DNA of 64,000 bases from an uncultured archaeon (GTDB taxonomy: Archaea > Iainarchaeota > Iainarchaeia > Iainarchaeales > GCA-2688035), in assembly GCA_964354805.1 (NCBI GenBank), contig CAYHBD010000030.1:18337-82336 (forward strand), written 5' to 3'. Of this stretch, positions 3,501 to 41,279 are shown piece by piece. The notes under the pieces are model-generated. The model saw nothing but the letters and a program-made list of their open reading frames with translations, was not told the origin of the DNA and ran no database searches. Position 1 is the first letter of the stretch. The number at the start of each line of letters is the position of its first letter. Both the position numbers and the translations under genes were made by a program.

Positions 3501-4312
3501 AGCTTGGCGAAAAAGGTCCTGTTTTGCGAAGCCTATTTTCCCCAGGCTTTTGCAACAGCAAAAGGCTGTTGCGAAGCAAAACCCATTTCCCTGGGATTTT
3601 TTGCACGCGAAGCAATTTTCCCAAGGCTTTTTCACGAAGTGAAAAAGGCTTAAGCGAAAAAGGCCAGTCCAGTTTGACTGATTCCATGTTTTTCCTGGTA
3701 ATAGCCAGCATTTTGAGCACTTGGCTTTTCTATTCAAGCGCAACCTACGGCCTGACAATAGACCAGCAAATTTCAAGGCAGGGCAGGGAGGAATACACCA
3801 AGTCTGCGCTTGAAACAATTTTGTACAGCAGCGCGCCGAGGCAGGCAGGCCTTTCTTTGGAAGAAGCATCAGAGATTGACTACCTGCTTGCGGCAATAAA
3901 AGAGGACTACGCTGATGACACTGAACTGGATGAAACAAAAGCAATTCTTTTCCAGAACATAAATGCCGTAATGCAGCCGCTTGCAACAAACAGCAACTAC
4001 CTTTTCTACATATATATTGCTCAAAAAAATAAATTTGTTGTCACTTTTTTGTACGCAAGCGAAGCAAAAAACGATGACGGCTGGAGCTTAACCGGCAACA
4101 AAATTGTTTTTTCCTGCGTGCCGCCAAGCAAGCAGGCAGTGGAAGAATTCCTGCTTACGGTTGGCAGGATGTCTGTCAGCAACAGCAGAATTCAGCTGCT
4201 TGAATCAAAAGAGCCGGCTCCTGACAGATACGATGCCCTAATCACTTTAATCACTTGGATTCCAACGCCAGTTGATGAAAGCGACCTAAACTGCACTAAA
4301 TTCACTGGCTGA
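3491..4312 (+). CDS. Pilin-like protein; signal peptide carries a 49-codon repeat insertion
   Basis: MEIKLGEKG...SEKG|QSSLTDSMFFLVIASIL. Confidence 0.85.
   Translation: MEIKLGEKGPVLRSLFSPGFCNSKRLLRSKTHFPGIFCTRSNFPKAFSRSEKGLSEKGQSSLTDSMFFLVIASILSTWLFYSSATYGLTIDQQISRQGREEYTKSALETILYSSAPRQAGLSLEEASEIDYLLAAIKEDYADDTELDETKAILFQNINAVMQPLATNSNYLFYIYIAQKNKFVVTFLYASEAKNDDGWSLTGNKIVFSCVPPSKQAVEEFLLTVGRMSVSNSRIQLLESKEPAPDRYDALITLITWIPTPVDESDLNCTKFTG
3507..3663 (+). repeat. In-frame palindromic (REP-like) insertion, 147 bp net
   Basis: Bounded by GCGAAAAAGG at 3507-3516 and 3654-3663; shares TTTTTTGCACGCGAAGCAATTTTCCCA and AAAAAGGCTTAAGCGAAAAAGGCC with 1514-1770. Confidence 0.9.
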
Positions 4313-8708: not shown

Positions 8709-8770
8709 TGCTTCCTATAGCCCTGCAGCAATTTATTATAAATTTTCCCTCACCCCATATTATTATCCAT

Positions 8771-8943
8771 GGACCCATAGCCTAGTGGATAGGGCAACTA
8801 AAGAGGTGAGTTTTTCAATTCTCTCTTTTGCAAGCCTCCTAAAGCCTTTTCTTTAGAAAAGAAAAGGCTTGCGAAAAGAAATTTTTCGCTCTGCAAAAAA
8901 CGGGGCTAGCAGTAGGTCGTGGGTTCGATTCCCACTGGGTCCG
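8771..8943 (+). tRNA. tRNA-Arg(CCT) with two introns (29/30: 8800-8833; 37/38: 8842-8907)
   Basis: Acceptor GGACCCA/TGGGTCC; T-arm GTGGG-TTCGATT-CCCAC; removing both introns gives ACTGC-CTCCTAA-GCAGT; BHB-type motifs at both. Confidence 0.93.
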
Positions 8944-8944
8944 T

Positions 8945-9466
8945 ATGGCTTGGTTAAAGCGTTTGAAGCACAAAGCCAAGAAAGCAGTTGTTGTGCTCAG
9001 GTCAAGGCCTCTGCTGAGAGACCCAACAGCTTTAGGAGTTCCAAGGGTTATTTGGAAAACGAAATCGCATGGGAGAAGAATCATTTGGAAAAGCCCAGCA
9101 GAGCCAAGGGAAATTGAGGCAAGAAAGATTCTGCCAAAAATTGTGCCAAAAGAATGTGACACTTTTTATTTCAGGCTATCAAAGAGATACCCTTACAAAA
9201 TTGGCGCAAAGCGCTGGGAGCAGTACTATGATTTGCCTTCAATGGAAGATGTTTTCCACGGTAGAATGCACAGGCGAATGAGAAAACTTCTGCGGGAAAA
9301 GAGAATATCTTTCGAAAAACTGCTGAACATGTGCACTGAAGCGGAAGAGGAATTGCACAAAATCCTAAGGGAACACAAAGATGAATTGAATCTTGACCTT
9401 GGTCCAGACCAATTAATGGTTGGCGTAAGAAACGGCAAATTGGACCTAATTTTGGTTGATGTATAA
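8945..9466 (+). CDS. Orphan basic protein, weak kinase-fold-like C-terminus
   Basis: ATG 2 nt after tRNA discriminator; K/R-rich N-terminus; LDLGPDQLMV...LILVDV. Confidence 0.6.
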   Translation: MAWLKRLKHKAKKAVVVLRSRPLLRDPTALGVPRVIWKTKSHGRRIIWKSPAEPREIEARKILPKIVPKECDTFYFRLSKRYPYKIGAKRWEQYYDLPSMEDVFHGRMHRRMRKLLREKRISFEKLLNMCTEAEEELHKILREHKDELNLDLGPDQLMVGVRNGKLDLILVDV

Positions 9467-9580
9467 CCCTGTTCGTCAAAACCCCAAATTTTTTCACAGG
9501 TTAATGGCAATTGACGAAACCCTTTAAAAGCTGTTTTGGTTAATTTACTTTTAAGTGGGTTAATTTTTTGGGTGTTTTGA

Positions 9581-10331: not shown

Positions 10332-11066
10332 CTAAATCCTGAGCGCGAATGTTTCCCTCTTTTTCTGTTTCCCTGTCCTGTCAACTCCAATCAGCTTGAA
10401 TGTTTTCGTTGCATCTGTTTTGAATTCTTTTTCCAGCTGCTTTACAGCCAAGGCAGCTGCTTTTTTTGATCCGACTATTGCATCGATTGAGTTTTTTTTC
10501 TGTGTTGCGGAAACAATTGCGGCCAGACCGTCTCTTTTTTGCAGGGATGCGAGCAATTGCCTCAGCCTGTTGAAAGCAGCAGCTGCTTTTTCCCCCCTAA
10601 GCTGCACTATTGCCTCAAAGTAATTGCTTTTCAGCTTCATGCAAGCATCGCACTGCATTGCGGGAAAAGAGATTGTTGTTTTCCTTTCAACCAGAACAGG
10701 CGTGTTTTCAATTACGCCCTTTGCCGTTACGATTGCCTGCATTTCCTTTTCACTCAACCGCTGCAATTCAACTGACAGGGCAGCATCTGTCAGCTCCTTA
10801 ACCTTGCATTTTTTTTTGACGAACTGCTTCAATAGTTCCAAGTCAAAAGCGTGCATTTTCCCTGAAAGCAAAATTTTTCCGCATTGCTTGCAGCGCTGCA
10901 ACTCGATTTTTTCAGGCAACTGCAGAAGCGTGTGCTCTTTCAGGAAGCACTGGAGGCAGCTGCCCCTTACAAAAAGGCTGTCTGTTGCACCGCAGCTCGG
11001 GCAAAATAATCTGCCCAAAGCCTTTTTGCCTTTTGGCAAAAAGCCTTGGGAAAAGTTGCTTCGCAT
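10332..11066 (-). CDS. nmd3: NMD3 family ribosome biogenesis protein; N-terminus encoded by repeat
   Basis: FCPSCG, CLQC, CKQCG, CDAC, YFEAIVQLR. Confidence 0.88.
   Translation of the reverse strand: MRSNFSQGFLPKGKKALGRLFCPSCGATDSLFVRGSCLQCFLKEHTLLQLPEKIELQRCKQCGKILLSGKMHAFDLELLKQFVKKKCKVKELTDAALSVELQRLSEKEMQAIVTAKGVIENTPVLVERKTTISFPAMQCDACMKLKSNYFEAIVQLRGEKAAAAFNRLRQLLASLQKRDGLAAIVSATQKKNSIDAIVGSKKAAALAVKQLEKEFKTDATKTFKLIGVDRTGKQKKRETFALRI
11017..11064 (-). repeat. REP-like unit at NMD3 5' end
   Basis: GCGAAGCAACTTTTCCCAAGGCTTTTTGCC-AAAA-GGCAAAAAGGCTTTG. Confidence 0.85.
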
Positions 11067-11070
11067 CCCA

Positions 11071-11913
11071 TTAACCCACCTTGAGGAATTGCTTTTTTTC
11101 AAAGCCAAAGTAGAAAACAGTACTTAACACGTAGTAGTATGTGGCAAAAACTGCCAGCAGAAACCTTACCACTATCAATAAGGAAAAAACAGCCAATTGC
11201 TGAAGCAAATTCTGTGGCCCTATTAACCATACATCAACGCTTAAGAAAATACTGATGCCCATCGTTAAAAGAAAAAAAATGAATGCTTTTATAATATTTG
11301 TGTTGTGTTTAAACGAAACTGATACTGTTTGCTTAAGTGTTTTGGAAAAATTTAAGTTCTCTAAAGAGCCAATGGGGTAAATCAAAAAATATATGAATAT
11401 AAACCAAAAGAACATTGCCAATAAAGCCGCAAAAACCAAGATTGCAGACAAAAATAAATCCCCTGATAAATAGGATGTGTAAGCAAACCAAGTAAGTGGC
11501 AACCAAACAATAAGGATTGCCACCAAAGCGGCAAATAAGGGCATAAAAATTTTTCCGAAGTGATGCAAAACATTTTGCAATGCATTCTTAAAAGATATTT
11601 TTCTCTTTTTATAATAATCTTGGACCATTGGGGGATACATCGGATTTATAAGAAAAAAATCAATCGAATCAACTGCCAGACTGTATAAGGCAATAATAAG
11701 CATAGAACCGATTATATCCAACGCCCTACTTAATTCACTGCTGCTCAAATTATATGGATTCAAAAGGGACGTATCCAATTGAAGCCCGTAATAGGTAAGC
11801 AGAATAAATGCAGGCAACTGAAAGAATGCAACCAGAATCTTCGGAATGAACAGTTTGGGGCACATTCGCAGCAGAAGAAAGCTGTCAACCATGATTCTGT
11901 AAAAGCTCATCAA
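11071..11913 (-). CDS. Multi-pass membrane protein
   Basis: About 6 hydrophobic segments; AT-rich. Confidence 0.75.
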   Translation of the reverse strand: MMSFYRIMVDSFLLLRMCPKLFIPKILVAFFQLPAFILLTYYGLQLDTSLLNPYNLSSSELSRALDIIGSMLIIALYSLAVDSIDFFLINPMYPPMVQDYYKKRKISFKNALQNVLHHFGKIFMPLFAALVAILIVWLPLTWFAYTSYLSGDLFLSAILVFAALLAMFFWFIFIYFLIYPIGSLENLNFSKTLKQTVSVSFKHNTNIIKAFIFFLLTMGISIFLSVDVWLIGPQNLLQQLAVFSLLIVVRFLLAVFATYYYVLSTVFYFGFEKKQFLKVG

Positions 11914-36634: not shown

Positions 36635-36982
36635 CTATTCCTCCAAAATGCTTTTTGACAAAATAATCGAATTAACTATGCTGTTAACGCTTGCCCTCAG
36701 TGCGGTTGCATCTGATGCATTAATACCTATTTGCACTGCATTGTTTTTAATTTTAACATGTGTTGCGCTTCTCTTAGCATGCACTGCATTTAATTCTGGA
36801 CCAATTGCTTTCAAAAAAATGCCTGCTTCTTTTTTCGGCACAGCAATGCTGATGCTCAAATCAAAGCCTTTTTTGCTTAAGCCTTTTGCTTCGCAAAACC
36901 CTTGGGAAATTTGCTTCGCCTGCAAAAAACCCTTGGGAAAAGGGTTTTGCTTACGCAAAACATATTCCGGTGAATGCTGCAA
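36635..36982 (-). CDS. pcc1: KEOPS subunit Pcc1 with repeat-encoded N-terminus
   Basis: PE..., RS, INASDATALRASVNS. Confidence 0.85.
   Translation of the reverse strand: MQHSPEYVLRKQNPFPKGFLQAKQISQGFCEAKGLSKKGFDLSISIAVPKKEAGIFLKAIGPELNAVHAKRSATHVKIKNNAVQIGINASDATALRASVNSIVNSIILSKSILEE
36864..36960 (-). repeat. REP-like composite unit in pcc1 5' end
   Basis: GCGTAAGCAAAACCCTTTTCCCAAGGGTTTTTTGCAGGCGAAGCAAATTTCCCAAGGGTTTTGCGAAGCAAAAGGCTTAAGCAAAAAAGGCTT. Confidence 0.88.
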
Positions 36983-41170: not shown

Positions 41171-41279
41171 TGCAAAGCAATTGCCCTTTCCCCCATAATG
41201 CCAAGCTAAAGAATTATTTGTTTTTGTTCCATTGCTTGGCATTATGCCAAGGCTTTTTTCCCGCAGGAAAAAAGGCTTA
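41171..41279 (+). repeat. Intergenic REP-like unit with nested 13-bp inverted-repeat hairpin (41194-41246)
   Basis: GCAAAGCAATT..TTTCCCC [CATAATGCCAAGC..GCTTGGCATTATG] CCAAGGCTTTTTTCCCGCAGGAAAAAAGGCTT. Confidence 0.8.

Follow-up and report, generated by a model that had tools for sequence, protein, structure and literature searches.

It is fairly likely that many archaeal tRNA introns have a dispersed hairpin DNA element as their body. The element was studied in a 64,000-nt stretch of DNA, hereafter the window (C30:18337–82336), of the MAG G000, which is affiliated with Iainarchaeota (DPANN), a group of very small uncultured archaea, has a size of 1.38 Mb, and is 88.5% complete. One copy lies in the tRNA-Arg(CCT) gene, which has the following features in window coordinates:

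8771–8943 (+): tRNA-Arg(CCT) gene with two introns
8800–8833 (+): non-canonical 34-nt intron at 29/30, not repeat-derived; orthologous in L287, G012, and G001
8842–8907 (+): canonical 37/38 intron, 66 nt
8842–8870 (+): repeat head and main hairpin (AAGCC cap, pyrimidine tract, purine tract, GGCTT cap), from intron base 1
8871–8881 (+): GCG linker and third purine tract, the mirror image of the hairpin 3′ arm (putatively triplex-capable)
8882–8901 (+): repeat spacer segment, resembling the spacers of non-tRNA copies, e.g., C42:24000
8902–8907 (+): splice tail, very likely inherited from an older 15-nt intron

The 37/38 intron of tRNA-Arg(CCT) begins with AAGCCTTTT immediately after A37 and ends with GGGG-CT, where GGGG pairs with C32-U33-C34-C35 (tRNA positions 32–35) and CT forms the bulge. 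The presence of two introns explains why ARAGORN and Rfam, run with default settings, did not detect the gene, and no Rfam family reached the gathering score for the sequence of its 37/38 intron. A contig from the public sediment run X1 spans positions 8769–8943 with one mismatch and one gap. Since this contig matches the gene while its adjacent segment is ~10% divergent, the intron is not an assembly artefact. In the metagenome contig L287, the exons are identical to those of G000, the upstream flank is 89% identical, and the 29/30 intron is present; the 37/38 intron is only 15 nt long, does not belong to the repeat, and ends with GGAG-CT. The gene of G012 (flank 77% identical) also has a 15-nt non-repeat 37/38 intron, with the end GGGG-TT. 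Because both the closer L287 and the more distant G012 carry it, the 15-nt form is considered ancestral to the one in G000. From the comparison of these sequences, the repeat very likely took the place of the first nine bases of the older intron, and the six bases required for splicing were kept. The 37/38 site is without an intron in G001, G007, G010, G016, and G018. In G008 and G017 it contains a repeat-headed intron of a variant different from that of G000, which points to a separate colonisation. The 29/30 intron (8800–8833) occurs as the same non-canonical intron in two isoacceptors, Arg-CCT (G000, L287, and G012) and Arg-TCT (G001). An ORF of 173 aa (8945–9466, +) without a Pfam match begins one base past the tRNA-Arg gene; a related contig has 67 different bases instead of 8944–9503, so a variable insert is located behind this gene.

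The second tRNA gene of the window with such an intron is on the opposite strand:

46449–46569 (−): tRNA-Val(GAC) gene; position 33 is C here and T in relatives
46485–46532 (−): its 48-nt 37/38 intron, one whole repeat unit, with the tail from the repeat's GCCTTCGGCA spacer end

This intron also opens with AAGCCTTTT right after A37. A 47–48-nt single-unit intron was present in tRNA-Val(GAC) of four genomes (G000, G001, G012, and G006), the gene was intron-less in 18 genomes (11 of the family and 7 out-of-family), and a non-repeat intron occupied the site in none of the genomes compared. The four intron-bearing genomes fall in one EF-2 clade (support 100/100), which also includes the intron-less G013, G016, and G018. 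The history therefore comprises either one gain and one loss or two gains; the direction is read from one gene tree (EF-2), and in the one-gain case the loss falls in the g5/g12 branch. All four introns align over their full length with non-tRNA repeat units, and their tails are drifted spacer ends. According to our computations, the spacer end of the repeat forms a 4-bp helix with any anticodon loop having G34 and a purine at position 35. Repeat insertion probably created the Val(GAC) intron. Position 33 of this gene (window 46537, −) is C instead of the near-invariant U33, T being present in all relatives compared, and gives a mismatch with the intron tail; this C may reflect genuine variation, editing, or an error.

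A preliminary description of this DNA had stated that the Arg and Val introns open with AAGCCTTTT after A37, and this was confirmed, exactly for 8842–8907 and also for Val (46485–46532). It called them two unrelated tRNA introns; the tRNAs are indeed unrelated, but the introns are homologous through the repeat, and whether they are antisense copies of the element, as was written, depends on the strand chosen as the reference. The last nucleotides were thought to be tailored to each anticodon loop. Instead, the Arg tail appears to descend from the older intron, and the spacer end of the repeat itself forms the Val tail. The pattern described for two introns is real, yet it spans 17 tRNA genes, and the second Arg intron (29/30) had been missed. 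The suggestion that the element creates or enlarges 37/38 introns gained support: at Arg(CCT) the repeat very likely replaced an older intron, and at Val(GAC) it probably created a new one. The same introns were not found in relatives lacking the repeat: genomes with few or no copies were mostly intron-less or had short unrelated introns.

A custom tRNA census of G000 revealed 17 genes with a 37/38 intron opening with the repeat or one of its cap variants: Arg-CCT, Arg-GCG, Asp, Cys, Glu-TTC, Gly-CCC, His, Leu-CAA, Leu-CAG, Leu-GAG, Pro-GGG, Pro-TGG, Ser-CGA, Ser-GCT, Ser-GGA, Thr-CGT, and Val-GAC. The orientation was the same in 17/17 introns (P=1.5e-5 if independent), and the head started at intron base 1 (offset 0) in 13 of them, at offset 1 in two, and at offset 2 in two. 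About ten further 37/38 introns of G000, as well as its non-canonical introns, are not repeat, and intron-forming repeat copies were found at 37/38 only. Repeat-headed introns are 36–205 nt long, compared to 14–20 nt for short introns at the same sites in relatives, and once they are removed, the exons match intron-less or short-intron orthologues. Introns within one genome differ in subtype, length, and tail. Derivation of the tails by duplication, as copies of tRNA positions 32–37, was not general across introns and was rejected.

Splicing of these introns is predicted from the bulge-helix-bulge motif, a 4-bp helix with tRNA positions 32–35 and 3-nt bulges, in which at least 3/4 pairs were formed in 60/60 repeat-headed introns. 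Arg(CCT) has 4/4 pairs in a relaxed motif without a direct inner helix; Val(GAC) has 3/4 because its position 33 is C. In the reverse orientation, with the head as the 3′ end, a 4-bp helix was formed in 0/12408 unit-by-anticodon trials, since tRNA positions 32–33 are pyrimidines; the free ends of the sense orientation formed it in 3.5% of trials. The gene of the splicing endonuclease EndA is present in G000 (L001:1474–2031, −), and the enzyme is 75–81% identical to its five best matches, three of which are labelled Ca. Iainarchaeum; the affiliation of G000 with Iainarchaeota is read from these matches.

Variation between intron-less and repeat-headed states among genomes was also observed for Val-CAC, Ala-CGC, Ala-GGC, Gly-GCC, Glu-CTC, Pro-CGG, His, and Ser-TGA. 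G010, G014, and G018, with no strict copies of the repeat, and G004, with 2 copies, are mostly intron-less. The numbers of strict copies and introns track each other loosely, as in G012, with 4 strict copies and ~12 repeat-like introns. A precise intron loss was found in the tandem Arg(CCG) paralogues of G008, the exons of which are near-identical; one has an intron shared with G015, and the other has none. Because precise losses occur, single presence/absence cases cannot be polarised without a fuller tree, and some apparent gains could be losses elsewhere. At this locus (L458:1495–2985; G008:C41), the paralogue with the long intron has a degenerate 3′ end, and the two genes surround a duplicated gene pair resembling, by eye, a nucleotidyltransferase toxin-antitoxin cassette. 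The AGGCC/GCCCT variant of the repeat was located at 37/38 in 26/35 copies across 11 genomes, including seven isotypes in G016, vs. 6/47 copies for the common variant in G000 (Fisher P=1.4e-8, with copies of kin not being independent). In its simplest reading, this enrichment suggests copying between tRNA genes; a variant-specific target preference is possible as well.

The repeat core had 4 matches in the window vs. 0 in 100 shuffles, and 48 matches in the G000 genome vs. 0 for the reversed pattern. For bare AAGCCTTTT, ~4.8 matches per window are expected by chance. Outside the tRNA genes, the window contains the following copies:

1514–1770 (−): multi-unit repeat array outside tRNA genes
3507–3663 (−): multi-unit repeat array
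11018–11066 (+): single repeat unit at the 5′ end of a minus-strand NMD3-family gene
36864–36960 (+): degenerate repeat array
41171–41278 (−): repeat unit with a long hairpin between cap and linker

The NMD3-family unit (11006–11075) is missing from contigs of three public runs, where it seems to be replaced rather than cleanly excised. A long AT-rich hairpin nested between cap and linker, as at 41171–41278, was also found at C16:93017 and C10:20127 of G000 and in L458; elements therefore insert into each other. In tandem arrays, the spacer end is joined to the next head. In the whole G000 genome, 41/47 strict core copies are outside tRNA genes, and copies occur at stop codons, in intergenic regions in both orientations, and in frame within genes. 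The isoleucyl-tRNA synthetase (IleRS) gene has a clean in-frame 54-nt insertion, missing in 5/5 orthologues, with the same unit end as the Val(GAC) intron; this independently confirms the unit. The head begins within a few bases past position 73 in 13/43 tRNA genes of G000, and at Pro-CGG and Cys an oppositely oriented head adjoins tRNA position 1. For the subtype in which a C interrupts the U tract, nearly every copy is on the transcribed strand, located at tRNA trailers, introns, and stop codons. Non-tRNA copies are found in both orientations and have no tRNA-specific tails. The strict core was detected in 16/22 other genomes of the family (0–89 copies) and in 3/18 genomes of other families, with a patchy distribution among close relatives (strict copies in genus g5: 0 vs. 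89). Each of the three family clades has repeat-headed introns, and related forms were found outside it. A loose unit detector had 10% false positives in the control (13/131), and its class counts serve as a hint only. The repeat is dispersed, polymorphic, and fixed at its head end.

The repeat unit (~48–80 nt; up to ~120 nt for tRNA inserts) is gene-less and non-autonomous. It is composed of a cap (AAGCC or a variant), pyrimidine tract, variable loop, complementary purine tract, second cap, 3-nt linker, third purine tract, and small spacer hairpin, often terminating in GCCTTCGGCA. The two ends are dissimilar, except for a weak complementarity of head and spacer. The third tract is the mirror of the hairpin 3′ arm, not its direct copy: the mirror was better in 20 cases and the direct copy in 0, which holds both in G000 and in the fetched loci, the latter including a few G000 loci. 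The position of an interrupting G covaries between the 3′ arm and the third tract. The cap and linker swap G and C in step, GCCTT occurring with GGG (87 copies) and GGCTT with GCG (8 copies). We infer from these patterns that the unit has the layout of an intramolecular triplex, on the basis of a small number of independent covariation events (perhaps four or five). The pyrimidine-motif triplex falls on the untranscribed strand. Loops of the C-GN(N)A-G type, very stable in single-stranded DNA, were present on the strand opposite the tRNA in 21/47 hairpins and on the tRNA strand in 1; RNA-type C-UNCG-G loops were present on the tRNA strand in 6 hairpins. The 21:1 bias of the GNA-type loops towards the non-tRNA strand makes it more likely that selection acts on folded DNA than on the pre-tRNA.

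Insertions into the T-loop (53/54) have the orientation opposite to that of the intron copies. Their head adjoins T54, and the 20 bases T54–N73 are duplicated exactly, so that an intact tRNA gene remains. This exact duplication was found at 12 loci with 10 anticodons in 8 genomes; a 13th locus duplicates 21 bases. The T-loop inserts are gene-less and 67–119 nt long, and G042 has near-identical ones in four different tRNAs. Three insertions in the D-loop (15/16) have the sense orientation and duplicate the 5′ 16–18 bases of the tRNA, and one insertion at a stop codon duplicates 28 bases. Target duplications at the repeat are 0 or 16–28 nt; long ones accompany only 2/81 G000 copies, which ruled out duplication as a general feature of the repeat. 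The repeat occupies gene ends, in-frame gene sites, and structure-defined tRNA points on both strands, the latter being 37/38, after base 73, before base 1, T-loop 53/54, and D-loop 15/16. Insertion at the DNA level on either strand and subsequent filtering for survival would be expected to give this pattern.

We propose that the repeat is a small, gene-less, non-autonomous DNA element that would be copied to new sites at the DNA level. Persistence would be limited to insertions that leave a working tRNA because they lie beyond the mature sequence, can be spliced, or are compensated by a duplication. Of the two orientations at 37/38, the observed one alone is predicted to form the bulge-helix-bulge helix, and the splicing endonuclease would therefore remove the insert as an intron. 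The insert would either retain the 6-nt tail of an older intron (Arg-CCT) or use its own spacer end (Val-GAC), which is predicted to pair already with anticodon loops having G34 and purine-35, such as that of Val-GAC. [quoted passage not shown] If so, one insertion would turn an intron-less tRNA gene into a spliced one.

It is also conceivable, albeit doubtful, that entry of the repeat into a tRNA intron happened just once or on a few occasions, and that intron transposition or gene conversion then carried the introns to further tRNA genes. The precise junctions, the G008 Arg(CCG) paralogues with and without an intron between near-identical exons, and the concentration of the AGGCC/GCCCT variant at 37/38 (26/35 vs. 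6/47 for the common variant) speak for such spread. However, the introns of one genome vary in subtype, length (36–205 nt), and tail, the Val(GAC) intron corresponds to non-tRNA units over its full length, and copies in T-loops, D-loops, trailers, and reading frames would remain unexplained. As a second route, tRNA-to-tRNA spread is compatible with DNA-level insertion of the repeat. A host-selected RNA cassette (terminator, processing, or stability signal) at RNA ends, rather than a selfish mobile element, would account for the position of the C-interrupted-U-tract subtype, nearly always on the transcribed strand, and for copies at tRNA trailers (13/43), introns, and stop codons; conservation across genera and the mirror-repeat covariation also imply selection on the fold. 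Nevertheless, we regard this as improbable: the copies are patchy between close relatives (0 vs. 89 strict copies in genus g5) and include in-frame insertions (IleRS and further genes), copies of either orientation, and copies enclosed by target duplications, and a route of arrival would still be needed.

The preliminary description had offered as an alternative that mobile tRNA introns seeded the family. In this case, excised circularised tRNA introns would have been reverse-spliced or reverse-transcribed into the genome, which could explain why unit and intron boundaries coincide at Val(GAC), why arrays join the spacer end to the head like a circle junction, and why many copies lie at RNA 3′ ends; the precise intron loss in G008 could reflect an RNA-to-DNA step. 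Several observations disfavour this origin and make it highly improbable. No match to the reverse transcriptase RVT_1 was found in 23 family genomes (G000 and 22 others, 61–93% complete; G042 was outside the search), whereas 5/18 genomes of other families have one. The T-loop copies run opposite to the tRNA, the DNA-type GNA loops and the pyrimidine-motif triplex are on the untranscribed strand, and the non-tRNA copies are without tRNA-specific tails and in both orientations. Chance similarity of A/T-tract hairpins or an assembly artefact has a practically negligible probability. The genome is rich in A and T runs, and bare AAGCCTTTT alone is expected ~4.8 times per window, but the full core had 0 matches in shuffles and reversed controls, an independent contig has the same Arg intron, and the pattern recurs in many genomes.

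The search for an enzyme that mobilises the repeat found none in these MAGs, all of which are incomplete. Neither the two IS200 copies in G000 nor any of ~30 Y1/HUH loci in relatives was flanked on both sides by the repeat. Nearly all Y1 genes are ordinary IS200-like ones with their own ends, unlike the repeat (by eye and motif scan). The IS200-type elements of G000 are L002 (C35:572–1015) and L003 (C13:1268–1786), with further fragments at the ends of C6 and C10. IS91-type Y2 gave no match, and neither did its positive controls; Cas1 was not found in 5 incomplete genomes, with positive controls detected; a crude regular expression gave no motif match for GIY-YIG and LAGLIDADG. Among G000 genes with repeats on both sides, none was transposase-like by N-terminal sequence, and the repeat was absent from the viral contigs searched. 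The single tyrosine recombinase found in G000 has no adjoining repeat; the exact loop-edge junction of the repeat recalls tyrosine recombinase sites (PMC8371274). Our leading guess, made tentatively, is a trans-acting single-strand transposase of the HUH/Y1 type: the fixed head junction, the variable other end (duplication, clean insertion, or short deletion), and the single-strand folds fit one-ended HUH-type strand transfer in trans. Host repair or template switching seems rather unlikely as the mover, and so does a tyrosine recombinase or other nuclease; a reverse transcriptase is unlikely.

The introns share with canonical archaeal tRNA introns the 37/38 position, the 4-bp helix with positions 32–35, the 3-nt bulges, and the EndA gene (PMC4090602); they differ in that the intron body is a genome-wide dispersed repeat and is mostly much longer (36–205 nt). 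For Thermoproteales, intron transposition between tRNA genes, with gain at the DNA level, has been proposed (Fujishima et al., 2010, as summarised in PMC4090602), and it served as a control in a recent study (10.64898/2026.10.13.758758). Related introns in different isotypes of one genome are common to both cases, but here the sequence is not confined to tRNA introns and has dozens of non-tRNA copies. Intron gain via a kilobase integrating element with a recombinase gene, which carries the intron in attP, was described by Sugahara et al., 2012 (PMC3293823). That system resembles ours in the mobile DNA, duplicated tRNA ends, and loop-edge junctions (T-loop and anticodon loop; for archaeal tyrosine recombinases see PMC8371274). 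In our case, by contrast, the 50–120-nt gene-less element is itself the intron, and at least 10 anticodons are hit at the T-loop.

Rickettsia palindromic elements are in-frame palindromic insertions in genes, and eukaryotic introner elements are transposon copies that become introns by carrying or borrowing splice signals. Our repeat is likened to both by description; their hosts are different, and splicing here is by the protein EndA, not by the spliceosome. To our knowledge, a mirror third strand, tRNA targeting, 16–28-nt duplications, and intron formation are not features of REPINs. REP/REPIN sequences, mobilised by RAYT (PMC3116915), are similar in being short, non-autonomous hairpin repeats, clustered, over-represented, mostly extragenic, and folding as single-stranded DNA, but no repeat-flanked RAYT was found here (30 Y1 loci, incomplete genomes). 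The tRNA-linked repeats (TLRs) of E. coli are located behind tRNA and rRNA genes and end in an 18–19-bp copy of the gene 3′ end (PMC8144298), much like the T-loop class of our repeat; they are described only in tRNA and rRNA operons, with no intron or in-frame copies mentioned (PMC8144298). Casposons have Cas1-solo as a partner, are bounded by terminal inverted repeats, and duplicate ~15 bp next to the end of a tRNA (PMC5137440). A casposon derivative was rejected, with no Cas1 in the 5 incomplete genomes and no terminal inverted repeats, as was a classical MITE of a DDE transposase (no terminal inverted repeats, duplication of 0 or 16–28 nt) and an IS200/IS605-derived MITE (PATE), since the ends of the resident IS200 differ from the repeat by eye and motif scan. 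Integrase islands also displace a tRNA fragment from the loop edge, like the T54–N73 duplication at 12 loci; they were rejected because the inserts are gene-less and have several targets (four tRNAs in G042), and the tyrosine recombinase of G000 is without an adjoining repeat. A literature search for the repeat family, or for the repeat in DPANN tRNA introns, found nothing; subscription journals were mostly outside its reach.

A 2026 preprint on Asgard archaea (10.64898/2026.10.13.758758) left the arrival of tRNA introns open, with no general donor among tRNA copying, mobile elements, and reverse transcription. Here we can name a candidate for the donor sequence: its unit is defined, both occupied and empty sites are available, the orientation rule follows from computation, and copying from tRNA to tRNA provides a probable second route. 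Intron gain thereby becomes traceable on a tree and testable by in vitro splicing. In neither of the closest published ideas, tRNA-to-tRNA transposition and delivery by integrating elements (PMC3293823), is the intron body a genome-wide repeat. A new activity that moves DNA in DPANN archaea is also suggested by the conserved hairpin, with its mirror third strand, and by the exactness of the T-loop junction.

Many tRNA ends are followed by another hairpin module, the loop of which is of the GCGAAGC type (e.g., G000 C16:23076, L099, L105, L114, and L120). It occurs with or without an AAGCC unit, and a 13–21-nt copy of the tRNA 3′ end is often next to it. Repeat arrays are also present in G000 at the apparent 3′ end of a 23S rRNA gene, judged by eye, and near the other end of the same contig (C38:6149 and C38:326–362). 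The tRNA-Thr(CGT) gene just outside the window (C30:17631–17745) has an A30-C40 mismatch in the anticodon stem. At C42:32258–32377, G000 has a tRNA-Ile with the TAT anticodon, uncommon in archaea; its intron is non-repeat in G000 and repeat-headed in G001.
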